A stretch of DNA of 64,000 nt from a virus. Position numbers and translations under genes: made by a program. Within the stretch, counting starts at the first letter, position 1; every line of letters starts with the position of its first letter. The notes under the pieces are model-generated. The model was not told the DNA's origin, did not search any database, and saw only the letters and a program-made list of their open reading frames with translations. This document shows positions 9,005 through 29,945 of this stretch, piece by piece. The stretch lies in IMG/VR virus record IMGVR_UViG_3300026488_000010. One strand, given 5' to 3'.

Positions 9005-9784
9005 TTATCCTATCTTTTTATTATACTCTTTTAAGAATTTTAATAATTCATGATCTTTAAAATTATCCCATGCTCGTATATCTTTATCCAAACACGCGCT
9101 AAAGTTTGAAGCATCTTTATCATTTGATTGACCATAACCTCTATATCCATCTAATCCTGATATAGAGTTTTCAGATGCTGGTATATTAGAAAGCATATTT
9201 GCAAGCTTTCTAGAATTACCTGTTTGATCTTGAATAAATTCCCAAAACATTAAATTATATGCTTGTTTGACATTTCGTAAATATTTAAAATCAATAGCTT
9301 CTTGTGCTGTACACATTTCATACTTAACTTTGTTATTAAATTCAAAATAGTGACCATACATTTTTCTAACAAAAGATGTATGTATAGCATCTCCACCAAG
9401 CACTATATACTTTGAATTTTTAAAATCTTCTGATGCTGTTGTAGCATTTAAAAATTCGGGTGAGATAACAATTTTTAATTTAGGGTATTTAGTATTCAGT
9501 ACTTCGAGGATCGTACTATTGATTACGATAACGCCTTCATATTTTTTATAAGAAAGAGTGTCCAATATTTTGATTAAAATTGATAGATCTTGACCATCAT
9601 CTGTTGTTGGTGTAGGTACAGCTACAAATATAATATCAGCTTTCATAGCATCATTTGATGTTGCACTATTAAATGTTTTAAGTTTAGGTGATTCATCAAA
9701 ACATAGAACTGAATTTAATAAACCATCTGATACACTATTATATATTGCTGAACCTACAACACCCATTCCTATAATTGCAATCAT
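9005..9784 (-). CDS. UDP-glucose/GDP-mannose dehydrogenase family protein, short form
   Basis: IIGMGVVG Rossmann motif, FVAVPTP, INSTI, SPEFL, catalytic-type ACLDKD; 259 aa, lacks the C-terminal UDP-binding domain. Confidence 0.85.
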   Translation of the reverse strand: MIAIIGMGVVGSAIYNSVSDGLLNSVLCFDESPKLKTFNSATSNDAMKADIIFVAVPTPTTDDGQDLSILIKILDTLSYKKYEGVIVINSTILEVLNTKYPKLKIVISPEFLNATTASEDFKNSKYIVLGGDAIHTSFVRKMYGHYFEFNNKVKYEMCTAQEAIDFKYLRNVKQAYNLMFWEFIQDQTGNSRKLANMLSNIPASENSISGLDGYRGYGQSNDKDASNFSACLDKDIRAWDNFKDHELLKFLKEYNKKIG

Positions 9785-10758
9785 TACTGTTCTCCTATAA
9801 TATGATCAAGAGATTCATTATAAGCCTCTTCACTTTCTAATACCTCTAATGGTCTAATATGATCTCTAATATTTTCAAGTATTTCTTGAACAGAATACAT
9901 CCCAATATCTGCATCAGTTCCTTCAAATTCTAAAATTCTATTTTTAATTATACCATTATCCTCATGCATTAGAGCATATTCAATATCAGTTTCGAATACA
10001 TCATTTATTAATTTTAACAGTGTTATGACATCAATAGTATTATCATCATTTTGTGAACCAATATTAAAACATTGTTTATTGTTAATATTATTTATAAGAT
10101 TAATTCCAATTGGTATTATTTGATCAATAGCATCTCTAATATCACAATAGTTTCTGATACCATTGTTTGTAATTACAACGTCTCTATTTTTAAGAGCAGC
10201 ATTAATGAATGTTGGTACAACCATTCCTGGTGTATTTTGACCCGGACCTACAACATTAAAAAATCTTACTACTGCTGATGGATATTGTCCGCTATGGAAT
10301 AGAAACTCTCCATGTACTTTTGCGGCAGCATATGACCATCTTGGTGAATCGGATGGTTTTTTAATACTAAAAGGTGTTTCATCATTAATTGATTGTTCAC
10401 CAAATACTTCAGATGATGATGCATATATGATTGGTGTATTGAATTTTCTACCAATGTAATCCAAGTTTGAATTAATTTTTGAACTAACTCTAAATGTATC
10501 TCCAGAATTTGCAATTATGTTTGATACACCAATAGGTGACGCTAAATGATATATCAGATCAAAATTTTTAAATATATCAATATCTTCTGAATACATGATA
10601 ATTAAATTAATTTTATGTATTTTAATATCTTTATTTATAATTGTTGAATCATCATTGATATCGCAACCTTCGACCATATGTCCTAAAGACGCTAATTTAT
10701 TTGCAAGATGTGATCCAATAAAACCATTAATTCCTGTTATAAAAATCTTTTTTTTCAT
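9784..10758 (-). CDS. Extended SDR epimerase/dehydratase (UDP-glucuronate decarboxylase/ArnA-like)
   Basis: TGINGFIGSHL, YASSSEVFG, PRWSYAAAK (YxxxK), RFFNVVGP. Confidence 0.85.
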   Translation of the reverse strand: MKKKIFITGINGFIGSHLANKLASLGHMVEGCDINDDSTIINKDIKIHKINLIIMYSEDIDIFKNFDLIYHLASPIGVSNIIANSGDTFRVSSKINSNLDYIGRKFNTPIIYASSSEVFGEQSINDETPFSIKKPSDSPRWSYAAAKVHGEFLFHSGQYPSAVVRFFNVVGPGQNTPGMVVPTFINAALKNRDVVITNNGIRNYCDIRDAIDQIIPIGINLINNINNKQCFNIGSQNDDNTIDVITLLKLINDVFETDIEYALMHEDNGIIKNRILEFEGTDADIGMYSVQEILENIRDHIRPLEVLESEEAYNESLDHIIGEQ

Positions 10759-10760
10759 AA

Positions 10761-11546
10761 TTATTCCTTTATGATATACTGCAACACTAGTGAACCTCTA
10801 GTTTGAAAACTAGGAGATAGTGCCATCAATTTTATAGTTTCCTTTTCTGTATTTCTAACAACTTCTACAACATTACTTAACTCATCAATTACCTCAAAAA
10901 CAACCTCACCTGGAAAGATTAATTGATTGATATCTCGTTTAAAATTAATAAATCCTGTTTCTAAACAATGCATTGATTTTAATTCATTATCTGGACAAGA
11001 ACACTGATTGGTTTTTTCTTTAATGAAATAATCAACTAATGATCTAACATCTTCAATTGCTTGTTCGAGTTCTCTAGAATTATTTAATGTTTGCATGCCA
11101 CTAAATTCATATGTAATACCAATCTTTCCATACTGATTAACATAGTCTTTTATAGTTCCACCTTTTGAAAAACGAGTTGCATACTCAACGCCTGACTCAT
11201 GACATATACTTGAAATTGTTGAACAATTTAAACCTTTATCGATTAAACAGAAGTTTGCACATCTATGAGAATTGTGAATATCTATAACGACATCAAATTC
11301 TGATACTTCTTCTTCGATTTTTTTGATACAATCATTATATGTTATTTCTTCGGTAAATGATCTATTTAAATCTTTTGTGTGAAGTTTTTGGACTTCTCGA
11401 GTGTTTGTCTCCAGTCCTGATTGGTTTAAAAATGGTATAACTTTTACATTTGGAGTATTTTCATAATATCCTTTTAAATATAAACCTGCTTCTACAGCCG
11501 AATGTTCATTTCCGTGAGTTCCCGAGATGATTAATACTTTTTTCAA
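10761..11546 (-). CDS. M14 succinylglutamate desuccinylase/aspartoacylase family deacylase
   Basis: GTHGNE (HxxE), DLNRSF, IDIHN, YEFSG; TTG start after AAGGA. Confidence 0.8.
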   Translation of the reverse strand: MKKVLIISGTHGNEHSAVEAGLYLKGYYENTPNVKVIPFLNQSGLETNTREVQKLHTKDLNRSFTEEITYNDCIKKIEEEVSEFDVVIDIHNSHRCANFCLIDKGLNCSTISSICHESGVEYATRFSKGGTIKDYVNQYGKIGITYEFSGMQTLNNSRELEQAIEDVRSLVDYFIKEKTNQCSCPDNELKSMHCLETGFINFKRDINQLIFPGEVVFEVIDELSNVVEVVRNTEKETIKLMALSPSFQTRGSLVLQYIIKE

Positions 11547-11772
11547 TTTGATTCCTTGTTATTATTGTTTTTTGTGATTCTTTTGTTATTGACCATTGAT
11601 CAATAAATTTCATTTGATTAGTCATGGGAAATGACAACTTTTTTAAAGTTGAACACATGTTCCATGATTCTTTTAATTCTTCATATATATCTTCAATATA
11701 TAATATTGAAGATTCGAATGCGCTAATATAATCTAAATCCAATTCCTGTCTTGGTATATTAATCGTAATCAT
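11506..11772 (-). CDS. Hypothetical protein
   Basis: ORF track; overlaps the next start by about 40 nt. Confidence 0.45.
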   Translation of the reverse strand: MITINIPRQELDLDYISAFESSILYIEDIYEELKESWNMCSTLKKLSFPMTNQMKFIDQWSITKESQKTIITRNQIEKSINHLGNSRK

Positions 11773-11781
11773 ATTAATAAT

Positions 11782-12540
11782 TTATGATACAGATGATGCG
11801 AAATCAATTGCTGCTTGTTTTGCTTCATCATCAGTATTGATAATGTACTCACCTTTACCATACTCTTCTGGATACTCGTACCAATGATTTGTATCATATG
11901 CTTCTCGACCTTCTTGTTTTCCGAAGAAATCTATTCTAGTAATAATATTGATTCCTAGAATAGTTGGATCAGGATCATGATATGTTTCTTCGAGCACTGA
12001 TGGTTCTGTTAAAGTTTTATCAGAAGCATCAGAAGTATCAGAATCTGGAACATCATTATCTCCATATGTGTAATACCCATCAGGATTTGGAACATCTTTA
12101 TTAATTGATTTGATTATATAGTTCGTACCATACTCATCATCTACACCAACATCATGTGATACCCAATCCATCATAGATGATTCAAAATTTTCTTTAGTGT
12201 CTGGATAATATCCTGAGTCTCCTTTTTGCACAGAGTCTCCAATTTCGAATCCATATATTGCTCGATGACTCCAACCATAATATTTACCATCATCTGATTT
12301 TCCAAGAGAATGTGTTATTAAATCATTGATTTGATATTTTAATAGGAAATTATATGTGTCGTGAATAATATCATCATTATCCACACAAAGATAATGATTA
12401 TCTTCTTTATGCATCCAGCACATACCAAAGTCTGTTCCATATGCATCTATATAATGCACTACCTCAAAATTCTTTTCAAAAATATTTTTTAATTGTTGAA
12501 TATTTTCTTTACGTTTCTTTTTCATATTGTTTCCTTTCAT
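11782..12540 (-). CDS. Hypothetical acidic phage protein
   Basis: YYGWSHRAIYGFEIGD and C-terminal EAKQAAIDFASSVS; RBS favours a start at ATG 12525. Confidence 0.7.
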   Translation of the reverse strand: MKGNNMKKKRKENIQQLKNIFEKNFEVVHYIDAYGTDFGMCWMHKEDNHYLCVDNDDIIHDTYNFLLKYQINDLITHSLGKSDDGKYYGWSHRAIYGFEIGDSVQKGDSGYYPDTKENFESSMMDWVSHDVGVDDEYGTNYIIKSINKDVPNPDGYYTYGDNDVPDSDTSDASDKTLTEPSVLEETYHDPDPTILGINIITRIDFFGKQEGREAYDTNHWYEYPEEYGKGEYIINTDDEAKQAAIDFASSVS

Positions 12541-12544
12541 TATA

Positions 12545-12607
12545 ATTTCTATACTAACTCACTTCTATCTTTATCGATAAGGATCGTTTTTGAGTTAGTA
12601 TAGAAAT
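12545..12607. promoter_or_regulatory. Palindromic element: 17-bp perfect inverted repeats around an ATCTTT..GAT core
   Basis: atttctatactaactca (12545-12561) and tgagttagtatagaaat (12591-12607). Confidence 0.75.
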
Positions 12608-12614
12608 AGGGTAA

Positions 12615-13202
12615 TTATAATATCCATTTCTTGATTTCATCGATACTTTTAATGTTTGAATTATTATAATTGTAACATATATTTTTTAATTTCATTGCTT
12701 TAAGAGTTTGGTGAATAAATTTATGTATTGTTAAATATACGATATTCTTTGAATCTAACGATTTTCCATCTTTTATAGCTTTAATTAGTCCATGATTTCG
12801 ATCTCTTGAATATACTCGAGGAATTAATAAACACACATATGATGCAGCACTATGCCGAACTTCAACTGTGCAATTCTTTTTTAATTGTTCATATCTATTT
12901 TTATGTTCCATCATAATACCTTTCGTTGATGCATAAATTAATTTTGCTTTTTGTTGATTGGCAAATGCTATACAATTTCTAGTTCCAATTTCCAAAGATT
13001 CTAATTTATGTAAATTTGAATCATTATTTGGGCTTCCGAAGTGAAAAATATAACTAAAATCGTGTTGAAAATATTTTTCAAAATTTAAAATATTTTCAAC
13101 AACTCCTTCAAATATCTCAACATCATAATCTTGAACAAGAATATCGAGCAAGTGACTACCTAAGTAACCTCTTGCTCCAATTAATAATATTCTATCTTTC
13201 AT
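12615..13202 (-). CDS. NAD-dependent epimerase/dehydratase (short SDR)
   Basis: LIGARGYLGSHL, YASTKG, YEQLK (YxxxK). Confidence 0.75.
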   Translation of the reverse strand: MKDRILLIGARGYLGSHLLDILVQDYDVEIFEGVVENILNFEKYFQHDFSYIFHFGSPNNDSNLHKLESLEIGTRNCIAFANQQKAKLIYASTKGIMMEHKNRYEQLKKNCTVEVRHSAASYVCLLIPRVYSRDRNHGLIKAIKDGKSLDSKNIVYLTIHKFIHQTLKAMKLKNICYNYNNSNIKSIDEIKKWIL

Positions 13203-13647
13203 AATCTTTACCTAACTCAATATAATATATTCCATTTTTATCATCTAAGTGATTAAGCAATCTTTCTAATTCTTCTAAATTTTTAGGTGCTAAAAATTCG
13301 ATGTTCAACATTCGACATATATCTTTATTGTTATCTATTGTGTGTCCTGCACCAAGCTTAGAATAGCCTATCTTACCCGCGTTAAAAATGATTATTTTAC
13401 CTTTATCAACAAAAGGCACACATGAATATTTTAATTGCTCTATACGATGCATTATGAAGCCTGCTACACCGTAAACGTATACTGACTCTCCTTGTGATGC
13501 TAGTCCACCTGCAATATTTAAAAGATTTGCTTCACCTAATCCAGTGTTTAATACTTTAGCATCTGTTGCAAATGCGTAAATATTAAACATATCTGCATGT
13601 AATAAGTAATCATTTTCTGTTAAATGTTCTGCTATATGTCTTCGCAT
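13192..13647 (-). CDS. Transketolase C-terminal (pyrimidine-binding) subunit, truncated
   Basis: LNTGLGEANLLNIAGGLA, RIEQLK, LGAGH. Confidence 0.8.
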   Translation of the reverse strand: MRRHIAEHLTENDYLLHADMFNIYAFATDAKVLNTGLGEANLLNIAGGLASQGESVYVYGVAGFIMHRIEQLKYSCVPFVDKGKIIIFNAGKIGYSKLGAGHTIDNNKDICRMLNIEFLAPKNLEELERLLNHLDDKNGIYYIELGKDYER

Positions 13648-14378
13648 AATGTTACCTCTCTAATATCTTCTAATTGTTTATAATGCCAATGTACTGGATC
13701 TTTTATCATTTCTATTACACCATCACCTTTGATAGTCTCAATTAAAAATACTATTGGTTTTTGCATATTATCTAATATGCTTTTAACGTTTGCAGCATTA
13801 AATTTTGATTCTTCAATCATAAATGGGATCCATCCAGCATTATAAAACATATCATATACACCATTTACAGTCATGCCTAAAATATCTGTCGTGTTTCCTG
13901 TGAGTTGTGTTCTATTATAATCAACTGTTAATACAATATTTTGTTTATGCTTACCAATATATTGTATTGCTTCTAATGTTGGCCCCATTTGAAGAGCAGC
14001 ATCTGATATATTACAATATGTTCGTTTCCCATTATAACTTATACCACTCGCAAACCCTAAAGCATTACCCAAAGTTTCTTCACCATAATCTACGAAGTCT
14101 ATTTCATCATGTTTGACACCATATGATAAGTTATCAATATTTAACATATAATAATAATGCCAAATGATATAATATGCTTGAGCTCCAAATGGTTTGCCGA
14201 TTACGATATTCCATTCATATGGTTCAATCACAGCGGAAGACCCTGAATCATCATATCTAAATAATTCATGTGTATAGTGAAGCATTGATAGTGCACTAGG
14301 TATATGACTCAACTTTTTATCTATAGAATATTGTAATACTCTATTTAATATTGTTTTTAATTCCATTTTATATTCCAT
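13632..14378 (-). CDS. Transketolase N-terminal (TPP-binding) subunit
   Basis: HIPSALS, TLGNALGFASG, SDAALQMG (GDG-like TPP motif), TIKGDG, WHY; start may be ATG 14366. Confidence 0.8.
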   Translation of the reverse strand: MEYKMELKTILNRVLQYSIDKKLSHIPSALSMLHYTHELFRYDDSGSSAVIEPYEWNIVIGKPFGAQAYYIIWHYYYMLNIDNLSYGVKHDEIDFVDYGEETLGNALGFASGISYNGKRTYCNISDAALQMGPTLEAIQYIGKHKQNIVLTVDYNRTQLTGNTTDILGMTVNGVYDMFYNAGWIPFMIEESKFNAANVKSILDNMQKPIVFLIETIKGDGVIEMIKDPVHWHYKQLEDIREVTLCEDI

Positions 14379-14463
14379 TATAATTTTTGTTTATATTTTT
14401 TGATTCTTCTTCGTTTTTAAAAAATATAGTGTAATCTTCATTATAGTTACATCTATTATTCAT
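14368..14463 (-). CDS. 31-aa small ORF below the track cut-off
   Basis: MNNRCNYNEDYTIFFKNEEESKNINKNYNGI; AAAGGA 5 nt upstream; exactly fills the gap between two genes. Confidence 0.4.
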   Translation of the reverse strand: MNNRCNYNEDYTIFFKNEEESKNINKNYNGI

Positions 14464-15250
14464 ATTCATCCTTTATCAATTCTAAAATTTCATCTAGGTC
14501 ATCTTCTATTTGGCACCATTCTTGTTCGTTTCTACCAATTTTATATCCAGCTAATGTTCTAGGATTTATATCTGTAAGTTTATGATGAAATTTTTGAGAC
14601 GTTGAGTATTCATATTCATAGTCATCAGCATTAAATTCAGTGTTGTCAAATAATGATTTATTTTTGAACCAACACGCTACTAGGTATTGTTTAGACTCAT
14701 CTAAAACGGCTTCACCTATCATCTTGAAATGCTCATTATAAAGCGGGCAATATGCGCATTCATATGAATATAATAGAATGTATTGACTCATATTTAAAGA
14801 GCTATAATCATTGTCTATGAGCTCTACACGAGGCACTATATAATCAAATTCTTTTTCAATATCTTTATACACTGAAAAATCTTTTATATCAAATCCAGTA
14901 ATTGAATAGATATATGTATATTTTGGATATAACTTTTTAAGTTGATGTATAATTGCTCTATTTGCAATTATAATTGAGTTGCCTTCTCTATGGTTATCTT
15001 TCAATACTTCGTGCGTTATACTATCGTTAAAATTGATTTTATAATTAGTTAAAGCGAAGCTAATGTTAATTCCACTGCTAGGTGAGTCAACAGTATTAAC
15101 TCGTCCACCGTTCCAAGAACTGCCAACAATACCATCATAAACTTTAATATCGATATCAAGCTCTTTTAATATTTTTCTATTTTTTAATTTCCATAACTTG
15201 TATTGTTTTATATATTTAAAATATGGTACTTCAATGATTAAACTGCTCAT
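14456..15250 (-). CDS. U32 peptidase-like Fe-S protein
   Basis: WNGGR near the N-terminus, YECAYCPLYNEHF, GYKIGRN (FKIEGR-like). Confidence 0.6.
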   Translation of the reverse strand: MSSLIIEVPYFKYIKQYKLWKLKNRKILKELDIDIKVYDGIVGSSWNGGRVNTVDSPSSGINISFALTNYKINFNDSITHEVLKDNHREGNSIIIANRAIIHQLKKLYPKYTYIYSITGFDIKDFSVYKDIEKEFDYIVPRVELIDNDYSSLNMSQYILLYSYECAYCPLYNEHFKMIGEAVLDESKQYLVACWFKNKSLFDNTEFNADDYEYEYSTSQKFHHKLTDINPRTLAGYKIGRNEQEWCQIEDDLDEILELIKDEYE

Positions 15251-21635: not shown

Positions 21636-22228
21636 CTTAAATCCTTGTTCAGACTCGCATCTGATATATTATCTTTACCATCTTTAGTCTGAACCCAACA
21701 ATATTTTTTAATTAATTTTGATGATTTCATATTTTGAATAATTTCAAGATACAAATTATAATCATTATCTAACGCGTTCCCTGTTGGAAATTTGGTCACT
21801 GTAGATCTCTTAAAAAATAATTGTGATAATTGAAAAGTACTATTTATTTTTGGTAACATAAACTCTTTTTTTCTCTCTTCAATAGCCTCTAAAGTATTCG
21901 ATAATTTAAAGTTTAAAAAATTAAGATCTTTTTCAAAATCAATATCGTCCCAAAAATCTAAACTAAAATCATCATCTTCCAAATACCAGACATATTTAGA
22001 TGATGATTTATCAAATAAATATTTATAAATAATAGATAAATCATCAGATTTTATATACGAATATTCTATATATAAATCTGTTAATATCTCTTCTATATCA
22101 TCACTATCATTATTAACATAAATTTTTACTTCTGCTCTTAGATGGTCAGGTATTGTATTAATTAAAGATGAAATACATCTCTTAAATAAATGTGGTCGAT
22201 TATGTGTTAGTATTAAAATATCAATCAT
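21617..22228 (-). CDS. Family 2 glycosyltransferase
   Basis: ILILTHNRPHLFKRCISSL, YVWYLEDDD, DNDY. Confidence 0.75.
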   Translation of the reverse strand: MIDILILTHNRPHLFKRCISSLINTIPDHLRAEVKIYVNNDSDDIEEILTDLYIEYSYIKSDDLSIIYKYLFDKSSSKYVWYLEDDDFSLDFWDDIDFEKDLNFLNFKLSNTLEAIEERKKEFMLPKINSTFQLSQLFFKRSTVTKFPTGNALDNDYNLYLEIIQNMKSSKLIKKYCWVQTKDGKDNISDASLNKDLRWKICL

Positions 22229-23226: not shown

Positions 23227-24115
23227 TTAAAATATCCTTTATAATATTAATTATTTTATCATCATCTTGTAATTGTAAATCTGTATGTTCTAAATCTAAA
23301 ATACGATTTCGTAAACCTAAATCAATATCTAAATAATCTATAACTTCTTGAGTGTATTGAACATCAATTCCAAAATATTTACATTCAACAATAAATCTAG
23401 GAGAACAATCCCATTTCGCATCTATCGGTGTGTAAACATATTTATTAAATCTTTCAAATAAATTATCAACAGGTGCTCTAAGATTTTCGACATTTTTATA
23501 GTTTCCAAAATTTGATATAACTATTTTATCACCTGGAATACGATCAATAGACTCTTGACTAATATATCGACAATTTTCAGTAGCATATATTAATGTTTTA
23601 TTATCATGTCGTGTCGGCTTCTTCAATCTTTTAAGATCAATCATCTTAATATAATTTATATGTTTAGATGTTTGATATGCACTCTGGTCTAATAGAATAT
23701 GGTAGTTTGGTTTATCAATATCTATAACCTTTTTATCCCCACATGCAAACATAAAAACATTATCCATTAATAATGTACAATGTTTTTGAATATTGGTTAT
23801 CGCACCATCTGTAAAAAATATATTAGTGCCTCTCAATAATTTTGGCGAATCTAAAAAAATGGTGTTTGATAATAGTTCTTCTAATTCATTATCAGATATC
23901 AGGTACTTATCAAGTATTGCTTTTGTAAATGTTTTTTTATCTAAATCGCACATCAATATTGCAACAGAAATGTGCTTTTTCAAAAGGTTATAATAATCAA
24001 TAACTTCAAAAGTGTGCCCACATATACCGTGCTTAACGGTGCTCCAGGAATATGTTAAATATAAATTATATTCATTTAAAGTTTGTATGCTTGATTTCAT
24101 GCTTGATTTTTTCAT
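23219..24115 (-). CDS. GT-B-fold glycosyltransferase-like protein
   Basis: DCSPRFIVECKYFGIDV resembles the GT-B nucleotide-sugar binding motif; paralogue of 24702..25502. Confidence 0.45.
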   Translation of the reverse strand: MKKSSMKSSIQTLNEYNLYLTYSWSTVKHGICGHTFEVIDYYNLLKKHISVAILMCDLDKKTFTKAILDKYLISDNELEELLSNTIFLDSPKLLRGTNIFFTDGAITNIQKHCTLLMDNVFMFACGDKKVIDIDKPNYHILLDQSAYQTSKHINYIKMIDLKRLKKPTRHDNKTLIYATENCRYISQESIDRIPGDKIVISNFGNYKNVENLRAPVDNLFERFNKYVYTPIDAKWDCSPRFIVECKYFGIDVQYTQEVIDYLDIDLGLRNRILDLEHTDLQLQDDDKIINIIKDILND

Positions 24116-24702
24116 ATTATCTCCGAATTAAATATGTCATTTGTGTCACCAATTAAATGTTTTATATCTTGTGGTCGTATATATCGTTTATATTCTTTTA
24201 AGATTTTAAATATATTTTTTTTACTTAAAAAACTTTTTGATCCAATATTTAATGCTGCGTCTAATCGCACATAAATGTTTTTAGATGCAGCAAAATTAAT
24301 AAAGGTTTCTAGATTTTTGATATTGTTATTATCTATTACTACAGTGTATTGTACTTTATGATCAGGATCGTCAACAATATCAACATCTATTAAATTTTCA
24401 GAACAGTGATAAATATATGAATCAATTAAATGATAATATATATTATATCTTTTAAGGAACATACCATTAGTTGTAACATTTATTATACTTTTTTTATCAA
24501 TCAATATATCAAATATTTTTCGCATTTGAGTATCATCTACTAAACCAGGTTCCCCACCTGTAATCGTAACTTTTGAATATTCTTTAATACTTTTTAATGA
24601 ATTGAGAACTTCATTATCATTGATTGATCGCTTATTGTGTGTGTCAACTATACAATACTGACACTTCCAGTTGCATTCAAATGTGATAGGAACACAATAC
24701 AT
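24112..24702 (-). CDS. Short radical SAM protein (196 aa)
   Basis: CNWKCQYC, TGGEPG, TTNG. Confidence 0.85.
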   Translation of the reverse strand: MYCVPITFECNWKCQYCIVDTHNKRSINDNEVLNSLKSIKEYSKVTITGGEPGLVDDTQMRKIFDILIDKKSIINVTTNGMFLKRYNIYYHLIDSYIYHCSENLIDVDIVDDPDHKVQYTVVIDNNNIKNLETFINFAASKNIYVRLDAALNIGSKSFLSKKNIFKILKEYKRYIRPQDIKHLIGDTNDIFNSEII

Positions 24703-25502
24703 TAGGTGCTCCTAGCAGTCATAGCAACTATCATTTTATCTGATTCATCTATTGTATAATCTTTTAGACCATTTCTTTTAATATCATTATATCTGATTAT
24801 AGTTGAGTCAATAATATCTGTTTCATTCTCTATTATTAATTTAGTATCATAATAAAATGCTTCTGGAATTATTCTATTATTTGTATCGAGCATCTGATGA
24901 ACATATAATATAGTGCAGCATTCTTCAAATATTGATATTGATTTATCAAGATGTTTTAATATAACATTTTTTAAATTATATTTTTTTGTGTACTCTTTAA
25001 TATTTAATTGTTCTGGTACTCGACTAGATATGAATGTTTTAGTTCCCGATGATTGAATATCTTTCATAATATCAAAATTTAACTTTAACTTACATTTAAT
25101 ATCAAAATCTTGATAATCATATTCACCATAAAATATTACTTGTTGTTTCTTCGGCATCATATAACTATGAGACTCATTACTATACACATGCATAGGGCAT
25201 TGTAAAAAACAATATACCTCGTGATATGTTCTGAGATCTAATATTAATGCTTTATTTATTCTGATATTATATAAAGATGTTGTCGTAGTACTTTTGAACT
25301 TTTTAAATAAGTGCTCAATGTTTTTATATTTATTAGAAAACGATCTTTTAAGATCGTTTAGATCTTGATCATTTATATTTACTAATAAAAATTCTAAGTC
25401 TGGATCGTTTTGTGATAAATATGCAAAATATTCAAAAGCATAATAGACTGAACCATTATACTTTTGATGAACATACCATTTGTATATTACTACATTTTTC
25501 AT
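24702..25502 (-). CDS. GT-B-fold glycosyltransferase-like protein
   Basis: DTNNRIIPEAFYYD; N-terminal NGSVYYAFEYF matches CGHTFEVIDYY of 23219..24115. Confidence 0.45.
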   Translation of the reverse strand: MKNVVIYKWYVHQKYNGSVYYAFEYFAYLSQNDPDLEFLLVNINDQDLNDLKRSFSNKYKNIEHLFKKFKSTTTTSLYNIRINKALILDLRTYHEVYCFLQCPMHVYSNESHSYMMPKKQQVIFYGEYDYQDFDIKCKLKLNFDIMKDIQSSGTKTFISSRVPEQLNIKEYTKKYNLKNVILKHLDKSISIFEECCTILYVHQMLDTNNRIIPEAFYYDTKLIIENETDIIDSTIIRYNDIKRNGLKDYTIDESDKMIVAMTARST

Positions 25503-25514
25503 TTTTTTATTTTT

Positions 25515-26120
25515 TTATTTTGAAGACGTTAACGTCTTAATGATTTCAGAATAAATCTCCAGGACCTGTTCTTGTGATGTTGCATCTTTCATATCTCTAT
25601 AAAAAGTCATGTATAACTCTTCTAAATAAGAGCTACGAGCAATAACATCACGAGCATTTAAATATTCTTCAAGTTTATCAATTAACAATTCATCTTCTGT
25701 TTCCAAGATTTGCAGATAAACTTCTTCTTTATTATCATCATGGATAAAATAACCTTTATCACATAAAGTATTATTAATATTAATATATTGATACATCATG
25801 AGACCAGAAGTGTTTGCTTGTTGGTGCGATACCATTTGGCGAGCTTTTTTCATATATATCATTTTCTGAGATGATAGATCATCAGTATCTGGTTCAATGA
25901 TAATTAAATCATGTTCCTGTACATCAATACCCTGATAATCCGAAACGATTCTTACAAGTTTATTAGCATTCATTGCGATTCTAATAGCGACATCTGCTGT
26001 TTGACTCAAACCTAAGAATCTATTATTTTTTTCAAAATCTTGTGTTAAAGAGCTACTAATATACTCAACTTCATAATATTTGCCGTGGTCAATTACCGCA
26101 GCTACACTGTATACCATCAT
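25515..26120 (-). CDS. Hypothetical protein cotranscribed with the Cys-repeat gene
   Basis: ORF track, AAGGA RBS. Confidence 0.7.
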   Translation of the reverse strand: MMVYSVAAVIDHGKYYEVEYISSSLTQDFEKNNRFLGLSQTADVAIRIAMNANKLVRIVSDYQGIDVQEHDLIIIEPDTDDLSSQKMIYMKKARQMVSHQQANTSGLMMYQYININNTLCDKGYFIHDDNKEEVYLQILETEDELLIDKLEEYLNARDVIARSSYLEELYMTFYRDMKDATSQEQVLEIYSEIIKTLTSSK

Positions 26121-26130
26121 TTTTTATTCC

Positions 26131-26976
26131 TTAAAAATCTAATAGATCTTTTAATAGATCATATCTTACACCGTAAAAACCAGTTACTGTTTCTACAACA
26201 TATTCTGCTAATCCTAATTCAATTAGCTCTTGAGCCATTACCCCAACTTGTTTACCAGAATCTAAAATTAATTCTGAATATTCATCTTTATATTCATACT
26301 CGTAGATTGGAACATATTTACCATCAAGTTTTCTAGTACATATATATGTAATATTTTTCTTTAATCTCATATCAGAGTAATGACACCCACAATCAGTATT
26401 ACACACACATTGAGAATTACATGAACAATCAGAATTACATAAACATTGTTTGGATATTTGTTCAAACTTTGTAATGATTTCATTGTGATAAGACATTTTA
26501 ATTTTTGTATTTCTATCAATACTTGATACATTCGATGTTACAGACATATATGTATTTAAAGTATTGATAACTTCAGCAACCGCTTGCCAATGTGATAACG
26601 ATATCTTTGAACCACTTGTTGCATTAAATGATGCTACTGTTGCATAAAAGTTGCCATTACCACCAGACATTGACCAATTCTCTTGTAAAGAATTTACTGC
26701 AAATTTTAAAGCATTAATATCTTTATGACTAATTTTGATATTAGTTCCAGATGCAAAAGATAATGAAGGCCAACCTGTGGTATTTGTACCATGATGTTGA
26801 GTACATGTAATATTAACTTCATATGTATCCTCAACATAGTTTGTACCATGTCCTTTAGTTACAGTCCAAGCTGATGCGGGACTTACTCTCCCAGCATCAA
26901 CCCTTCCTGTAACCGCACTAGGTGTTTTTGTATGTGTCGGTGTACTTGTACTTGTAATACCATCATTAAATCCCAT
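26131..26976 (-). CDS. Virion-type protein with (CxCNxx)4 repeat and C-terminal peptidase S74 intramolecular chaperone
   Basis: CLCNSDCSCNSQCVCNTDCGCHY followed by SDMRLKKNI...IYEYEY...GVMAQE...VRY. Confidence 0.85.
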   Translation of the reverse strand: MGFNDGITSTSTPTHTKTPSAVTGRVDAGRVSPASAWTVTKGHGTNYVEDTYEVNITCTQHHGTNTTGWPSLSFASGTNIKISHKDINALKFAVNSLQENWSMSGGNGNFYATVASFNATSGSKISLSHWQAVAEVINTLNTYMSVTSNVSSIDRNTKIKMSYHNEIITKFEQISKQCLCNSDCSCNSQCVCNTDCGCHYSDMRLKKNITYICTRKLDGKYVPIYEYEYKDEYSELILDSGKQVGVMAQELIELGLAEYVVETVTGFYGVRYDLLKDLLDF

Positions 26977-26986
26977 TATAATTCCT

Positions 26987-28117
26987 TTATTTTCGTAGTT
27001 TTAAATATCTTTGAACAGTTCTATCAATTAAACCAAAAAGTTTATACACTTCACATAAATCATCTTTAGGATCATGATAAGCTTCTTCATAACTTTTATC
27101 AGATACTTCAACATTTATAATTGGGCATTGATAACATACAGTAGCTGAACAGCCTTTACAATGTTCGGGTAATATCAATAATTCTTTATGTTTTTTGTGA
27201 GAAGTCATTACAGACTCAGCAATATTATCAACACTACCAATTATGAATTCTTCTTTTTTATCTACATATAGTGCACCATGACATACTAACATATTACCAT
27301 CTAAATCAATATTTGCAATATTGATTCCAGCTGTACACATTGCTCGATCACCTGTACCAAACCATGTGAATAAAAATTTACCATTTTCTTCAAAGTATTT
27401 AATTTCTCTTTTTGCCAATTCTGTAAAATCTTTTTCTAATTTATCTAATAACTTTTGTTCTATTAAATATTTGTTAGTGTATTCTATAGTAGGTGACCAT
27501 GAGATCCAAGGTAATTCTTTAGATAATTCATAATAATGTTCCCAATGTTTAACAATATTTGGTAACTCTTCAACAGGTAAAGTTCCTTTAATTGAGAAAT
27601 TAATTTCTGGAAAATTCGAACTTAAATATTTAATTGAGGACAATACTCGTTGTTGAGTGCCTTTACCTGAATGGTCCACTCGATACTTATCATGACCAAT
27701 ACCATCATAAGATACTTGAAATGAAAATCTCGAATCATCTATACCATATTCTCGAAATTTATAAATTATTGATGATATAGTTAAAGCATTTAATCCATTA
27801 GTGTAAAAAAAGAAATCAATAGGGTCATTTTTATATGCTTCCAATACTTCAAATATTAATTTTGTATTTAGAGTAGGTTCCCCACCCCAGAAGTCCAATG
27901 TTATTCCATTATATTCTTTTTGGAACTCTGCATCAATGAGCAAATCATTAATTATTTTAATAATATCTAGATCTTGTTTTTTTGTGTTTTGAAGTTCTTC
28001 TCCTTCAAAACAATAAGTACATGCCATATCACATTTCTGAGTAGTTGTGACTTCGAGTGCAAAATATTTTTTTGTAGGCAATGGTCCTGCTTTATTTATC
28101 ATAGGATCATTTATCAT
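26987..28117 (-). CDS. Radical SAM/SPASM maturase-like protein
   Basis: CDMACTYC, FWGGEP, CTAG...DLDGNMLVCH, CKGCSATVCYQCP, LCEVY. Confidence 0.9.
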   Translation of the reverse strand: MINDPMINKAGPLPTKKYFALEVTTTQKCDMACTYCFEGEELQNTKKQDLDIIKIINDLLIDAEFQKEYNGITLDFWGGEPTLNTKLIFEVLEAYKNDPIDFFFYTNGLNALTISSIIYKFREYGIDDSRFSFQVSYDGIGHDKYRVDHSGKGTQQRVLSSIKYLSSNFPEINFSIKGTLPVEELPNIVKHWEHYYELSKELPWISWSPTIEYTNKYLIEQKLLDKLEKDFTELAKREIKYFEENGKFLFTWFGTGDRAMCTAGINIANIDLDGNMLVCHGALYVDKKEEFIIGSVDNIAESVMTSHKKHKELLILPEHCKGCSATVCYQCPIINVEVSDKSYEEAYHDPKDDLCEVYKLFGLIDRTVQRYLKLRK

Positions 28118-28377
28118 TATTGTTCACCAAAAATATTAGCTAAAATTGTATCATATGTTTTATCATCTAATTTTGTTTTATCAATTGCTGCATTGTTTGC
28201 AGACACAGTTAATGTTTTAAATGCCTCTGTTGTAAAATTTAAAATATTTTTTGATGTTTGTTCAAACCCGGCAGCCTTAAATAATAAACCGGCCTCTAAT
28301 ACATGTTGTATCGCACCCTGAATCAACTGCTCATGAGTTACTTCTACTTCTTCTACTTCTTCTATCTCATCATTCAT
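28117..28377 (-). CDS. Small acidic helical protein
   Basis: ORF track; EEVEEVEV start. Confidence 0.65.
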   Translation of the reverse strand: MNDEIEEVEEVEVTHEQLIQGAIQHVLEAGLLFKAAGFEQTSKNILNFTTEAFKTLTVSANNAAIDKTKLDDKTYDTILANIFGEQ

Positions 28378-28913
28378 TATATTTTTCCTCTTAATGTTTC
28401 TTGTATTAAATCTAAAGTGTATTTATCTTGTTTAATTATTATATGTTGTATATCATTAATTTCTAAGAATTGTTTAATCTTATTATCTAATTCTTTCGCT
28501 TCAACAATATCTTGACTTCTACCACCTTCAAAGAATCCATATAATGCTGAACGTTCTAAAAAAATATTTAAATTGTTATATCTATTATATTGTTCAATCA
28601 TAAAATCATTGAATTCAACATGTGCAATATGATTAGCATCACAATAATTTAGTCCCATGACAAATGGTGAATCATGAACTGCTACTTCAACGCAACGATC
28701 CAATCTCTTCATACGACGATGTTGCTCACCTGCAACATGTAACTGATCATTTAATAATTCATATGATTCATCATATATTAACTCTTTAGCATATTCTTGG
28801 GTCATATCAGCATCTATACCTTTCTTTTTTAATAAAGATGTTAACTCCATTGCAAGTGTGGATTTACCAACACCTGGACCGGCAAAGAAATTTATATGTA
28901 ACGCATTTTTCAT
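28377..28913 (-). CDS. P-loop NTPase/nucleotide kinase (NadR/AAA_28-like)
   Basis: GPGVGKST Walker A, EYAKEL, HDSP. Confidence 0.8.
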   Translation of the reverse strand: MKNALHINFFAGPGVGKSTLAMELTSLLKKKGIDADMTQEYAKELIYDESYELLNDQLHVAGEQHRRMKRLDRCVEVAVHDSPFVMGLNYCDANHIAHVEFNDFMIEQYNRYNNLNIFLERSALYGFFEGGRSQDIVEAKELDNKIKQFLEINDIQHIIIKQDKYTLDLIQETLRGKI

Positions 28914-28922
28914 TATTTATCC

Positions 28923-28958
28923 TTCTACTATCTTTTACTATCTTTTACTATCTTCTAC
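28923..28958. repeat. 10-bp tandem repeat (tt(c/t)tactatc) x3.6 across a stop codon
   Basis: Read directly; includes the stop of 28938..29945. Confidence 0.85.
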
Positions 28959-29945
28959 AAATAGTTTAATTAAATGTGTGCCTGTTTCTTTTAATAGTAA
29001 TTTTAACTCAGCATCAATACCTTTATATATTGTACATAATTCCGAAATTACTCCACCATTTTTTACTTGTTCAAAAATACATCCTTTATGACATGTGTTT
29101 TTAATTTTACACGAATTGCATTGATCTAAATAATCATTTCCAAAATTCTTTTTAAATTTTAAATAAACACTATCATCTCTTAAAAATCTTTCACATGGTA
29201 TTATATCTTTACTCTTTGGAGAAATCGCAAAATATTTAATACCTGCTTGACAATTAGTTTTTTGATACCCAGTATAAGAATATTCAATTATTGGACTAAG
29301 ATATGTTTTAATTAATCCAGGTAATTGATTATAAGTTGTGCATTGCTTGATCATTGGTATCATATAATTAATATAATTTCGAAAATCAATTATAAAATAT
29401 TCTGATTGTAAAGCATTCCATGTACCCATGTCACGGACAAGTGTTACATCAATAGTTAATAATTCTGAATCAAACATCTTTTGAAAACTTTTTTCTAAGT
29501 TTATAAGATAATTACTATGCAATTTAAAATCACCACCAACAACCATACAATGTATTCTAGCATTATGTGATAGATATTCTTTAGCAAAAACTTTTTTTGT
29601 ACCTCTATGAACTTCTTGATTTTCACCATCATGCGATATTGTTATATTTACTTTAGGATTATTTATTATATCAATAACCCTAGAATTATAAATTGTACCA
29701 TTTGATGTTATATTTATTTTTTTACAATTATCAATTTGTAATTTCTTGATGATATATTCAACATCATCCAAATTTAAAAATGGTTCCCCACCAAATATAT
29801 CAAATACAAATTCTTCATGTTTAATTGATAATAATAATTCATCAAAATCTGATAACGATATTTTATTTTTATTATTCACATCAATATCACAATATGTACA
29901 ATTCATATTACACTGCTCAGATAAAACATAATGATACGTCTTCAT
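28938..29945 (-). CDS. Radical SAM/SPASM maturase-like protein
   Basis: CNMNCTYC, FGGEP, CQAG...IIPCERF, CNSCKIKNTCHKGC, LCTIY. Confidence 0.9.
   Translation of the reverse strand: MKTYHYVLSEQCNMNCTYCDIDVNNKNKISLSDFDELLLSIKHEEFVFDIFGGEPFLNLDDVEYIIKKLQIDNCKKINITSNGTIYNSRVIDIINNPKVNITISHDGENQEVHRGTKKVFAKEYLSHNARIHCMVVGGDFKLHSNYLINLEKSFQKMFDSELLTIDVTLVRDMGTWNALQSEYFIIDFRNYINYMIPMIKQCTTYNQLPGLIKTYLSPIIEYSYTGYQKTNCQAGIKYFAISPKSKDIIPCERFLRDDSVYLKFKKNFGNDYLDQCNSCKIKNTCHKGCIFEQVKNGGVISELCTIYKGIDAELKLLLKETGTHLIKLFVEDSKR

Follow-up and report, generated by a model that had tools for sequence, protein, structure and literature searches.

A radical-SAM-rich island among phage tail-fiber genes, with a putative role in maturation of a cysteine-repeat fiber protein

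A 287-kb uncultured phage carries, among its tail-fiber genes, a 21-kb block of seven radical SAM (rSAM) enzymes, sugar-making enzymes and predicted glycosyltransferases built around a small cysteine-repeat fiber-type protein. The block occupies positions 9005-29945 of the analyzed window, a 64,000-nucleotide stretch of the viral DNA. The most favored reading, held with evenly balanced confidence, is the enzymatic maturation of a virion fiber protein by thioether stapling plus glycosylation, which would explain the long-puzzling rSAM gene clusters of Campylobacter and marine phages. The new elements are the island-level synteny, the predicted GT-B and U32 folds and the link to the virion.

Gene content of the island

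The observation made in the sequence-only reading, a co-oriented modification island with seven rSAM genes inside the virion gene region, is confirmed. The island consists of 27 minus-strand ORFs filling 9005-29945, and in 15 of 26 junctions the stop and start codons overlap or abut. Only three gaps exceed 50 bp (12541-12614, 14379-14455 and 19642-19857). The island is AT-richer than its flanks, with a GC content of 0.271 against 0.324 and 0.313. Seven proteins pass Pfam Radical_SAM above the gathering score and show an intact CX3CX2C motif near the N-terminus, and six of the seven contain 4 to 7 further cysteines in the last 110 residues. The features are as follows, from the right flank to the left.

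30158-32233, minus strand: 691-aa tail-fiber-type protein, the right flank just upstream of the island, with C-terminal hits to tail-fiber PHROGs; an orthologue sits next to the island in G001 and G003 (G001 to G003 being three related IMG/VR phage contigs) and in L026 and L027 (L numbers denoting further contexts outside the window).
29946-30157, no strand: 212-bp gap upstream of the first island gene, holding palindromes with flanking inverted repeats, found by reading and a motif scan.
28938-29945, minus strand: 335-aa rSAM/SPASM enzyme, a core gene (Pfam 1.4e-10), aligning over its whole length to the PapB model at 65 bits, below cut-off, with CX3CX2C at residue 12 and a CX2CX5CX3C cluster at 276-289; conserved in G001-G003, L022, L026 and L027.
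28377-28913, minus strand: 178-aa P-loop AAA_28 kinase-like accessory protein (Pfam 2.5e-9), present in G001 and absent in G002 and G003.
28117-28377, minus strand: 86-aa acidic core protein between the two SPASM enzymes, without a Pfam hit or known family; an 81-92-aa counterpart occupies the same slot in G001-G003, the ENA contig ERZ21982217, L020 and L027.
26987-28117, minus strand: 376-aa CteB/PapB-like rSAM/SPASM core enzyme without an RRE domain (NCBIfam PapB 5.8e-27, 94.8 bits against a cut-off of 340); the best solved relative is CteB 5wgg (4.4e-14, aligned from CteB residue 103), and the family has 114 representative clusters at E<=1e-30.
26131-26976, minus strand: 281-aa cysteine-repeat fiber-type protein with an eight-Cys (CxCNxx)x4 block at residues 178-200, then an S74 self-cleaving chaperone from Ser201 (Pfam Peptidase_S74 1.6e-8 on residues 201-259).
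25515-26120, minus strand: 201-aa conserved core protein of unknown fold, hitting only an unknown-function PHROG; orthologues follow the Cys-repeat gene in G001-G003, L019, L020, L022 and L027.
24702-25502, minus strand: 266-aa compact GT-B-like glycosyltransferase, a core gene without a Pfam hit, whose ESM Atlas model matches GT4/GT1 clusters (TM 0.61-0.69 over residues 1-262).
24112-24702, minus strand: 196-aa minimal rSAM protein (Pfam 2.1e-8), with four tandem paralogues in G001.
23219-24115, minus strand: 298-aa predicted GT-B fold glycosyltransferase, a core gene (AF2 pLDDT 90.6); all 50 best matches in a VIA structure search are GT-B enzymes (Z up to 14.8, about 250 residues aligned), as are the strongest Foldseek matches; more than 244 unannotated homologues exist, and CP220 gp184 is 35% identical and lies next to an rSAM.
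22225-23226, minus strand: 333-aa rSAM core protein, HxsC/viperin/MoaA-like only in its core (Pfam 8.1e-14; NCBIfam HxsC 64 bits against a cut-off of 268); orthologues in G001-G003, L019, L020 and L026.
21617-22228, minus strand: 203-aa GT2 (GT-A) glycosyltransferase (Pfam 6.8e-7, 29.8 bits against a cut-off of 23.3); orthologues in G002 and G003.
19858-21635, minus strand: two paralogous rSAM genes with Pfam hits, 20706-21635 (309 aa) and 19858-20691 (277 aa), both paralogous to 16058-17077; the family is expanded in G002 and G003.
19642-19857, no strand: 216-bp gap with a GC-rich hairpin read in the sequence, a probable operon break.
18769-19641, minus strand: 290-aa protein without a hit in Pfam, PHROGs, NCBIfam or PADLOC.
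18013-18759, minus strand: 248-aa protein, possibly GT-A/GT8-like from a DxD-type motif read in the sequence only; an unknown-function PHROG is its sole hit, with no Pfam or PDB sequence match.
17058-18041, minus strand: 327-aa Cys-rich protein, an unconfirmed U32-like candidate, with a weak hhalign to the 14456 family (E 0.062) in which the CxxCP..H motif is aligned, a C-terminal CX3CX2C at residue 307 and no Pfam hit.
16058-17077, minus strand: 339-aa rSAM protein (Pfam 4e-12).
15247-16092, minus strand: 281-aa protein without hits in Pfam, PHROGs, NCBIfam or PADLOC.
14456-15250, minus strand: 264-aa TIM-barrel protein with a predicted U32-like fold (AF2 pLDDT 89.8) and invariant C165, C168, H174 and C193; the VIA top match is U32 peptidase 5d88 (Z 13.8, 205 aligned), the next match scores 11.7, and 46 unannotated homologues exist, although Pfam returns nothing.
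12615-14378, minus strand: split transketolase-like pair, 13632-14378 and 13192-13647 (Transketolase_N 4.5e-4 and NCBIfam transketolase 1.1e-10; Transket_pyr 0.071 and DXS 3.9e-4), plus a short SDR, 12615-13202 (Epimerase 3.7e-4); the trio is conserved in G002 at 54-56% and 29% identity.
12541-12614, no strand: 74-bp gap with a palindrome and inverted repeats, at the point where synteny with G001 breaks.
11782-12540, minus strand: 252-aa Tad6-family protein (Thoeris-inhibitor family; Pfam PF25188 4.5e-18, 66 bits against a cut-off of 27), probably not part of the pathway; orthologue in G001.
11506-11772, minus strand: 88-aa ORF without profile hits.
10761-11546, minus strand: 261-aa AstE/AspA-fold deacylase/amidase (Pfam 6.3e-12), with a 60% identical orthologue in G001.
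9005-10758, minus strand: UXS/ArnA-like SDR (9784-10758; Epimerase 6.3e-28) and truncated NDP-sugar dehydrogenase, N-part (9005-9784; UDPG_MGDP_dh_N 1.1e-11), the distal end of the island, with NCBIfam UDP-xylose-synthase-like and NDP-sugDHase hits below cut-offs; orthologues in G001 and G003, and the same Pfam families in L022 and ERZ21982217.
7109-8524, minus strand: 471-aa Ala/Thr-rich, coiled-coil-looking protein, the left flank, fiber-like only by composition and without HMM hits; 32% identity over 120 aa to a G001 neighbor.

Compared with the gene inventory of the sequence-only reading, all seven rSAM genes and the deacylase hold, whereas three of the four claimed glycosyltransferase-like genes, one of the two U32-like genes and one kinase are supported; a second kinase was not confirmed. 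The sugar-nucleotide genes are confirmed at the family level only, all below NCBIfam equivalog cut-offs. Of the two flanking genes claimed as fibers, the right one is supported by profile hits, and the left one is fiber-like only by composition.

Conservation of the core in related phages

The island is syntenic in every relative found and not scattered cargo. G001, G002 and G003 carry 10, 11 and 9 rSAM genes, respectively, all inside one 12-20 kb stretch beside the orthologous fiber gene. ERZ21982217 shows the same order with 11 rSAMs plus an IscA-like Fe-S assembly gene. Nucleotide-sugar genes, GT2, U32-like Fe-S proteins and arrays of rSAM paralogues vary around the core. In G002, the transketolase, SDR, U32 and GT2 genes are nested between core genes, and nucleotide-sugar genes accompany the core in all seven contexts long enough to judge (the window, G001, G002, G003, ERZ21982217, L022 and L026).

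In 11 sampled contexts outside the window (G001-G003, ERZ21982217, L020, L022, L023, L026, L027, the SRR29082275 contig and CP220), including one TAG-recoded phage and with the 376-aa enzyme from 57% down to 26% identical, a neighboring gene sits in the Cys-repeat slot; the repeat itself was read in nine of these, which leaves out the ENA and SRR29082275 contigs. The gene directly follows the enzyme in most contexts, precedes it in L023 and lies 2.2 kb upstream in CP220. Most contexts keep the order SPASM rSAM, a protein of about 85 aa, CteB/PapB-like SPASM rSAM, cysteine-repeat protein, a protein of about 200 aa, two GT-B glycosyltransferases and rSAM.

Residues C178, C180, N181, S182, D183, C184, C190, C192, C196, C198 and Y200 of the repeat protein are invariant in nine homologues, two of which end there, while the rest of the protein drops to 19-30% identity. 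The block ends within one residue of the S74 start or of the stop codon. The homologue in Campylobacter phage IBB_35 (534 aa, 60,317 Da, 35 Cys) equals gene 3-9, listed at 60,318 Da and found by mass spectrometry in purified particles, although this detection rests on 2.6% coverage. The statement in the sequence-only reading that rSAM-rich regions with largely unassigned substrates occur in Campylobacter group II phages is correct, as homologues sit in CP220 and IBB_35 without an assigned function in the literature (PMC2853527).

Proposed maturation of a virion fiber protein

The interpretation given in the sequence-only reading, a pathway decorating the virion or infected-cell surface with an unusual glycan plus Fe-S chemistry, is partly supported. 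The likely target is refined to a specific cysteine-repeat virion protein, and at least two of the rSAMs resemble peptide or protein thioether maturases rather than sugar enzymes. In the proposed model, the island is a conserved but plastic locus whose fixed core operon follows a tail-fiber gene. The SPASM enzymes would install thioether cross-links of the sactionine or ranthionine type in the invariant eight-cysteine block (CxCNSDC...CxC...CxC[NH]Y). The S74 domain would then trimerize the protein and cut itself off at Ser201, leaving the stapled block as the C-terminal tip, a step inferred from the family and supported by the orthologues that simply stop there. The GT-B and GT-A transferases would use sugars made by the island's own NDP-sugar enzymes (Ugd-like, UXS/ArnA-like SDR, transketolase-like pair, short SDR and deacylase) to glycosylate this protein or a neighboring virion protein. 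More speculatively, the extra rSAM paralogues and the U32-like Fe-S proteins tailor further residues or the sugar. No transmembrane segment occurs in any of the 27 proteins, so the chemistry would be cytoplasmic, and variation of the accessory genes between relatives would in this view diversify the fiber surface.

The thioether step is suggested by the relationship to the thioether synthase CteB and by the best NCBIfam models, which are PapB, CXXX-repeat and SCIFF maturases. As a precedent, the SPASM enzyme CrpC installs ranthionine links on a whole Cys-rich protein (PMC13692751). On the other hand, the SPASM enzymes score far below every curated equivalog cut-off and lack an RRE domain, the GT-B fold does not reveal the acceptor, and five of the seven rSAMs have no assignable subfamily, so that their substrates could be sugars or small molecules. 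The embedded Tad6-family anti-defense gene indicates that not everything in the island serves one pathway. The layout, synteny, family and fold assignments and invariant cysteine block come from the sequences, models and their comparison, whereas cross-linking, cleavage, production of any glycan, its placement on the virion and a common substrate for all seven rSAMs are at most inferred, without a biochemical datum for any member of these families. That the island is a real, syntenic and functionally linked locus is very likely; action of the SPASM enzymes on the Cys-repeat protein is somewhat more likely than not, and action of the transferases on a virion protein remains tentative.

Alternative readings

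A host-surface remodeling island, in which the sugar enzymes and transferases feed the host's LPS or capsule machinery to block superinfection and the rSAMs tailor the sugars, is possible but doubtful. A hypervariable island inside the structural module of T4-like marine phages, with fibers, GT8-type and other transferases, UDP-glucose dehydrogenase and rSAM cassettes, has been read in this way for the glycosyltransferase-rich host recognition cluster of pelagimyophages (PMC7029224), and Ugd-like, UXS/ArnA-like, GT2 and split-transketolase genes are typical of O-antigen and capsule loci. However, besides the absence of membrane segments, profile searches of the island show no flippase, polymerase, ligase or polyprenyl-phosphate transferase, the two GT-B genes are locked to the Cys-repeat fiber gene across distant phages and not to the sugar genes, and the SPASM enzymes resemble peptide maturases. 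Equally doubtful is a mosaic of unrelated cargo, in which only the SPASM enzymes and the Cys-repeat protein form a system and the remaining rSAM paralogues, U32-like proteins, sugar genes, deacylase, kinase and Tad6 are independent accessory or anti-defense genes accumulating in a recombination-tolerant hypervariable region. The middle part, 12615-22228, is replaced wholesale in G001 and has the lowest GC content, palindromic elements sit at module junctions, the Tad6-family gene is embedded, one rSAM scores on prokaryotic-viperin models, and the five-rSAM region of CP220 has been called an interchangeable module (PMC2853527). This is countered by the confinement of all rSAM genes of three relatives to this one locus, the nesting of accessory genes in G002, the co-occurrence of sugar genes with the core and the stop and start overlaps, which imply co-translation.

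DNA hypermodification, the alternative raised in the sequence-only reading, gains no support from the island's gene content and is very unlikely. T4 alpha- and beta-glucosyltransferases are among the GT-B matches at lower rank, a P-loop kinase is present, some thymidine hypermodification clusters contain rSAMs, and Campylobacter phages have modified DNA. Nevertheless, no nucleotide-metabolism, DNA-binding, TGT/DpdA or ThyA-type family occurs in the island, and no TGT/DpdA or ThyA-family genes were found in three related contigs, which are incomplete genomes; the invariant partner of the enzymes is a fiber-type protein, and the kinase is dispensable in G002 and G003. It is also unlikely, though possible, that the cysteine block is a metal- or Fe-S-binding knot of the fiber tip without enzymatic cross-links, with the neighboring rSAMs acting in sugar chemistry or cofactor delivery. 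The CxC spacing is metallothionein-like, conserved Cys/His motifs also occur near the N-terminus, metal ions are found in T4 fiber tips, and the IscA-like gene of ERZ21982217 adjoins the core. Against this stands the retained position of the Cys-repeat gene beside a CteB/PapB-type SPASM enzyme down to 26% enzyme identity, the genomic signature of maturase-substrate pairs, with CrpC/CrpA showing the same logic on a protein.

Gene content of the island and predicted folds of its products

The island at 9005-29945 holds 27 minus-strand ORFs that fill about 99% of the stretch. In 15 of 26 junctions the stop and start overlap or abut, and only three gaps exceed 50 bp. Seven of the encoded proteins belong to the radical SAM (rSAM) superfamily (PF04055), with Pfam scores of 35 to 52.6 bits against a gathering cut-off of 29.5 and a CX3CX2C motif near the N-terminus, at residues 10 to 54. 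Six of the seven have 4 to 7 extra cysteines in the last 110 residues. By pairwise BLAST these proteins fall into five groups, namely, the 335-aa, the 376-aa, the 196-aa, and the 333-aa proteins and a paralogous trio of 309, 277, and 339 aa. The other products that received a family-level, fold-level, or motif-level reading are as follows.

Other island genes with a family, fold, or motif reading
28377-28913, minus strand: AAA_28 P-loop protein
26131-26976, minus strand: 281-aa cysteine-repeat protein with a Peptidase_S74 chaperone domain
24702-25502, minus strand: 266-aa protein, predicted GT-B-like glycosyltransferase
23219-24115, minus strand: 298-aa protein, predicted GT-B glycosyltransferase
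21617-22228, minus strand: GT2 glycosyltransferase
18013-18759, minus strand: candidate glycosyltransferase, motif only
17058-18041, minus strand: second U32-like candidate, motif only
14456-15250, minus strand: 264-aa protein, predicted U32-like TIM barrel
13632-14378 and 13192-13647, minus strand: split transketolase-like pair
12615-13202, minus strand: short SDR
11782-12540, minus strand: 252-aa Tad6-family protein
10761-11546, minus strand: AstE/AspA-fold deacylase
9784-10758, minus strand: UXS/ArnA-like SDR
9005-9784, minus strand: truncated NDP-sugar dehydrogenase

All sugar enzymes and all radical SAM proteins score below the curated NCBIfam equivalog cut-offs, so only family-level names are justified. 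The GT2 protein (PF00535) reaches 29.8 bits against a cut-off of 23.3, with the match covering the N-terminal half only. The NDP-sugar dehydrogenase homologue is consistently short (243 to 272 aa) in the window and in the relatives L016, L022, and the ENA contig ERZ21982217; it keeps the NAD-binding and central domains but lacks the C-terminal UDP-binding domain of Ugd enzymes. The Tad6-family protein (type I Thoeris inhibitor family; 66 bits against a cut-off of 27) has an acidic insertion, lies inside the conserved distal end of the island, and has an orthologue in the closest relative; it is probably an anti-defense gene riding in the island rather than part of the pathway. No island protein has a predicted membrane segment. 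The island is AT-richer (GC 0.271) than its flanks (0.324 and 0.313).

The window belongs to a 286,633-bp contig of an uncultured myovirus whose large terminase is at most 27% identical to that of any isolate. A megablast search of the whole island against 50,697 phage records gave no match, and a tblastn search with the 334-aa protein at 4386-5390, left of the island, also returned none. Upstream of the island lie a fiber-type protein with tail-fiber PHROG hits, further large proteins, a tail-lysin-like protein, and the terminase. The left neighbor (7109-8524) looks like an Ala/Thr-rich coiled coil but has no HMM support.

The observation made in the sequence-only reading, an island of about 21 kb with seven radical SAM genes among fiber genes, holds, whereas its individual family calls are borne out to different degrees. 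The 298-aa protein has more than 244 unannotated homologues and yields a predicted structure with a pLDDT of 90.6; all 50 best VIA matches of this model are GT-B glycosyltransferases, with Z up to 14.8 and about 250 residues aligned, and the strongest Foldseek matches are GT-B as well. For the 266-aa protein, the ESM Atlas model matches GT4/GT1 clusters at a TM of 0.61 to 0.69. Neither protein has a Pfam hit at E≤10, and the assignment rests on the fold, without indicating donor or acceptor. The 264-aa protein has 46 unannotated homologues with invariant C165, C168, H174, and C193 and a predicted structure with a pLDDT of 89.8. Its top VIA match is the U32 peptidase Mk0906 (5d88; Z 13.8, rmsd 3.5, 205 residues aligned), two units above ordinary TIM barrels, which score 11.7 and below, but Foldseek gave only generic TIM barrels, and no match to the U32/UbiU-UbiV-TrhP-RlhA family (PF01136) was found with Pfam or NCBIfam even at E≤10 or in a profile search of the PDB. 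The name "U32-like" therefore rests on the fold comparison only. The second U32 candidate and the fourth glycosyltransferase candidate of the sequence-only reading remain motif-level guesses. Alignment of the two U32-like candidates with hhalign was weak (E 0.062), as was that of the two GT-B candidates (E 0.011), and neither pair is claimed to be paralogous.

Among ten unassigned proteins, a Pfam search at E≤10 gave nothing usable. PDB sequence or profile searches with the U32-like family, the proteins at 18013-18759 and 17058-18041, and the family of the conserved 201-aa protein returned only noise, and the ESM Atlas had nothing for the 201-aa protein. For the 333-aa radical SAM protein, PADLOC hit only generic pVip models. 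Membership in the viperins was rejected because the NCBIfam viperin model scores 57 bits against a cut-off of 180, and HxsC membership was rejected likewise (64 against 268).

Synteny and the conserved core

The closest relative, IMGVR_UViG_3300024260_000002 (G001), with a terminase 80% identical to that of the window, has an island at the same place. Its ends, corresponding to 9005-12540 and 22225-29945, and the flanking fiber gene are orthologous, but the middle part, 12615-22228, is replaced: G001 instead has a DegT-like fragment, unknown genes, three paralogous radical SAM genes, and four copies of the small radical SAM gene. Two more distant contigs, G002 and G003, in which the SPASM enzyme is 37 to 39% identical, again keep the core order and carry homologues of the GT2, the 309-aa radical SAM family, the U32-like protein, the transketolase-like pair with its short SDR, the SDR324, and the Ugd-like gene in other arrangements. 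A Pfam scan of the three contigs finds 10, 11, and 9 radical SAM genes, every one of them inside this single 12- to 20-kb locus. The contig ERZ21982217 shows the same order with 11 radical SAM genes, a Ugd-like gene, DegT, and an IscA-like Fe-S assembly gene. The sequence-only reading had named scattered, nonsyntenic singletons in relatives as evidence against it; this is not what is found.

The gene order of the core, in the direction of transcription, is as follows.

Core gene order
1. Fiber gene
2. SPASM-type radical SAM protein (335 aa)
3. Kinase (present only in some)
4. Acidic protein of about 85 aa
5. SPASM-type radical SAM protein (376 aa)
6. Cys-repeat protein
7. Protein of about 200 aa
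8. GT-B-like protein (194 to 282 aa)
9. GT-B protein (about 298 aa)
10. Radical SAM protein (333 aa)

The SPASM/twitch subfamily is marked by a C-terminal auxiliary-cluster cysteine motif of the CX2CX5CX3C type. The 335- and 376-aa proteins align over the whole PapB model and have 6 or 7 C-terminal cysteines; a Pfam SPASM match was not reported for the window proteins but is on record for the relatives P0281 and P0294. The 376-aa enzyme heads a large family with 114 representative clusters at E≤1e-30. Its best solved relative is the thioether synthase CteB (4.4e-14), with the alignment starting at CteB residue 103 and query residue 17, that is, without the N-terminal RiPP recognition element (RRE), for which the separate 86-aa protein might conceivably substitute. 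The best NCBIfam models are PapB, CXXX-repeat, SCIFF, and QhpD maturases, all far below cut-off: the 376- and 335-aa proteins reach 94.8 and 65 bits with the PapB model (NF047865) against a cut-off of 340, and the SCIFF score is 57.9 against 425.

Contexts were sampled down to 26% identity of this enzyme. In the nine of eleven contexts outside the window in which the DNA was read, a Cys-repeat ORF lies beside the enzyme; in Campylobacter phage CP220 it lies 2.2 kb upstream. The nine include a relative (L026, Logan contig SRR21576090) that needs TAG read as Gln and has an uncalled 190-aa Cys-block gene (6139-6711) directly after its SPASM enzyme, so the cassette also occurs in stop-codon-recoded phages. 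Fe-S support genes sit next to the core in ERZ21982217 and L022 (3016-3437), comprising an IscA/HesB-like Fe-S_biosyn gene, a BFD-like ferredoxin (weak hit), and a thioredoxin, which is consistent with a heavy Fe-S cluster demand from 9 to 11 radical SAM enzymes.

Palindromes of the AAAACGATCTTT/AAAGATCGTTTT type, flanked by inverted TAGTATAGAAAT-like repeats, sit upstream of the first island gene (29946-30157), at the exact synteny break with G001 (12541-12614), and upstream of the terminase (47337-47540). These may be regulatory sites or recombination joints, although the TAGTATAGAAAT-type flanking motif alone is not above chance. A scan for sigma-70 promoters and terminators is at shuffle level in this AT-rich DNA, and the T4 late-promoter motif TATAAATA is not enriched upstream of island genes.

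The Cys-repeat protein and its putative maturation

The S74 domain (PF13884) of the window protein scores 35.1 bits against a cut-off of 22 on residues 201 to 259. Nine homologues align with C-x-C-N-S-D-C, C-x-C, and C-x-C-[NH]-Y invariant, while overall identity falls to 19 to 30%; in seven of them the next residues are the S74 start SDxRLK, whereas in two the protein stops right there. The G002, G003, and L027 orthologues end at ...CNY[SA], which is only indirect evidence for an autocleavage that releases the chaperone. Other lineages use a heptad variant, CTC[ND]CNY in CP220, L022, and L023 and CTC[NQ]CNYS in L027, which again ends at CNYS. The mature C-terminus is thus predicted to be the cysteine block itself, on the inference that the S74 chaperone releases itself by cleavage. 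In L023 (JGI contig 3300035181, 3234-3974) the heptad repeat protein precedes the SPASM enzymes and continues into a domain that begins at a Cys and ends in ...SHN, which gene callers split into two wrong-frame ORFs. This may be a Hint-type self-cleaving module in the place of S74, but the Intein_splicing hit is subthreshold (E 0.016) and is kept only as a lead. A second conserved Cys/His motif lies near the N-terminus of the repeat protein, at residues about 40 to 70 (consensus T-C-x-x-H-R-x-x-C-x-x-N-R-P; C58 invariant), and is expanded into C-x-G-H-[ST] repeats in L027 and L022. It could be a second modification or metal site, conceivably for the HxsC-like 333-aa radical SAM protein.

S74 chaperone domains occur in phage fibers and spikes, and the only tblastn hits of the window protein in isolates are the S74 ends of cyanophage fiber proteins. 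In Campylobacter phage IBB_35 the homologue of CP220 gp140 is AEF56812, a protein of 534 aa with 35 Cys and a computed mass of 60,317 Da. Table S2 of PMC3322345 lists gene 3-9, a hypothetical protein of 60,318 Da, among 38 proteins identified by mass spectrometry in purified virions, and gene order confirms that AEF56812 is gene 3-9. This is the only experimental datum that bears on the family, and with 2.6% coverage it is thin.

A maturase-type SPASM enzyme fixed next to a Cys-rich ORF is the genomic signature of sactipeptide and ranthipeptide systems, and in 2026 CrpC of Methanococcus voltae was shown to install ranthionine links on a whole Cys-rich protein, CrpA (PMC13692751). The core is therefore read as a system that would staple the cysteine block of a fiber-type protein, which S74-assisted trimerization and self-cleavage would then expose. 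The two GT-B genes are as tightly linked to the repeat gene as the radical SAM genes are, nucleotide-sugar genes accompany the core in all seven contexts long enough to judge, the sugar, U32, and GT2 genes are nested between core genes in G002, and all proteins are predicted to be soluble. These points favor glycosylation of a cytoplasmic acceptor, most simply the same protein, which has Ser/Thr-rich stretches near its N-terminus. The gene content, the synteny, the recurrent pairing of enzyme and repeat ORF, and the invariant cysteines are read directly from the sequences, whereas every chemical step, including thioether formation, autocleavage, and sugar transfer, is inference, and the roles of the five other radical SAM enzymes and of the U32-like proteins are speculation. 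The proposal of the sequence-only reading, that the pathway decorates the virion or infected-cell surface with an unusual glycan plus Fe-S chemistry, is thus partly supported.

A more far-reaching reading is possible but less likely than not. In this view, a widespread group of large phages (this lineage, many uncultured aquatic phages, and Campylobacter group II phages) encodes a complete protein-tailoring factory for one fiber protein: several radical SAM enzymes would staple an invariant cysteine block exposed at the C-terminus by self-cleavage, dedicated GT-B transferases would add a phage-made, possibly branched or pentose-type sugar, and swapping of accessory radical SAM, U32, and sugar genes would diversify the fiber tip. 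This would be the first virus-encoded RiPP-like maturation of a structural protein and would assign a function to phage radical SAM clusters unexplained since 2010.

Alternative readings and related systems

Remodeling of the host LPS or capsule is the published reading of the analogous host recognition cluster of pelagimyophages (PMC7029224) and remains possible for the sugar part, but it is weakened by the absence of any membrane-bound assembly enzyme and by the linkage of the GT-B genes to the fiber protein. A mosaic of unrelated cargo would fit the wholesale replacement of the middle part, the low GC, the palindromes at module junctions, and the embedded Tad6 gene, but it is weakened by the confinement of all radical SAM genes of the three related contigs to this locus. 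DNA hypermodification, the alternative offered in the sequence-only reading, finds no supporting genes: no dNMP hydroxymethylase/ThyA-like, TGT/DpdA, or 7-deazaguanine genes occur in the island, and PF01702 and PF00303 are absent from G001 to G003, although those contigs are 35 to 68% complete. A purely metal-binding role for the cysteine block cannot be excluded.

The radical SAM-rich regions of the Campylobacter group II phages (Firehammervirus: CP220, CPt10, and IBB_35; PMC2853527, PMC3322345) belong to T4-like myoviruses with 11 or 12 radical SAM genes. CP220 gp136 is 28% identical to the 376-aa enzyme, gp184 is 35% identical to the 298-aa GT-B protein and is followed by a radical SAM gene, and gp140 carries a (CTCDCNY)x6 repeat. 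In contrast to the 21-kb block described here, the genes of CP220 are dispersed over several loci, the repeat protein is 534 aa long with further CxC motifs and without an S74 hit, and no transketolase-like pair or Ugd/UXS pair was seen beside them. The host recognition cluster of pelagimyophages and cyanomyophages likewise is a hypervariable island inside the structural module, among tail-fiber genes, in which glycosyltransferases, UDP-glucose dehydrogenase, and radical SAM cassettes come and go between close relatives. The authors of PMC7029224 describe that region only at annotation level, interpret it as O-antigen modification, and report no Cys-repeat protein or SPASM pairing.

CrpC/CrpA and the ranthipeptide/SCIFF maturases PapB and CteB share with the island a SPASM-type radical SAM enzyme encoded next to a Cys-rich protein, in the island a putative substrate, and CrpC shows that the chemistry works on a whole protein. 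The phage enzymes differ in lacking the RRE and scoring far below the family cut-offs; the putative substrate is a fiber-type virion protein, presumably trimeric, with a putatively self-cleaving chaperone, and several radical SAM enzymes and two predicted GT-B enzymes belong to the same cassette. In mycobacteriophage capsid and tail glycosylation and in chlorovirus Vp54, virus-encoded transferases and sugar-nucleotide enzymes decorate the virus's own structural proteins in the cytoplasm, but these systems are not known to include radical SAM enzymes or a Cys-repeat target.

Radical SAM-rich regions in Campylobacter phages (2010) and radical SAM cassettes in the fiber islands of marine T4-like phages (2020) have been noted but never explained, and no paper was found that links them to a Cys-repeat virion protein or to SPASM maturase logic. 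The island shows that they are organized around one conserved substrate candidate, a Cys-repeat, putatively self-cleaving, virion-type protein, together with two dedicated predicted glycosyltransferases. This turns a vague label of auxiliary metabolism into a directly testable hypothesis with a cultured proxy (gp140, gp136, and gp184 of CP220/IBB_35). If true, it extends RiPP-type thioether chemistry to viral structural proteins and points to a new way in which phages harden or diversify receptor-binding fibers, which matters for host-range biology and for enzyme discovery. What is added to the known genomic phenomenon is the island-level picture of a fixed core, swappable accessory modules, and 7 to 11 radical SAM genes always in one locus, the predicted GT-B fold of two core proteins, a fold-level match for one U32-like protein, and the mass-matched virion detection in IBB_35.

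A further resemblance to the Campylobacter phages lies outside the island. The 1337-aa protein at 41246-45259, with a C-terminal endolysin-PHROG match, resembles in size and position the 1159-aa "endolysin" gp135 that follows the SPASM gene in CP220 (9242-12721 of the CP220 sequence L017). Together with a 49%-identical hit labeled as an Epsilonproteobacteria MAG (P0051), this hints at a link to Campylobacterota phages.
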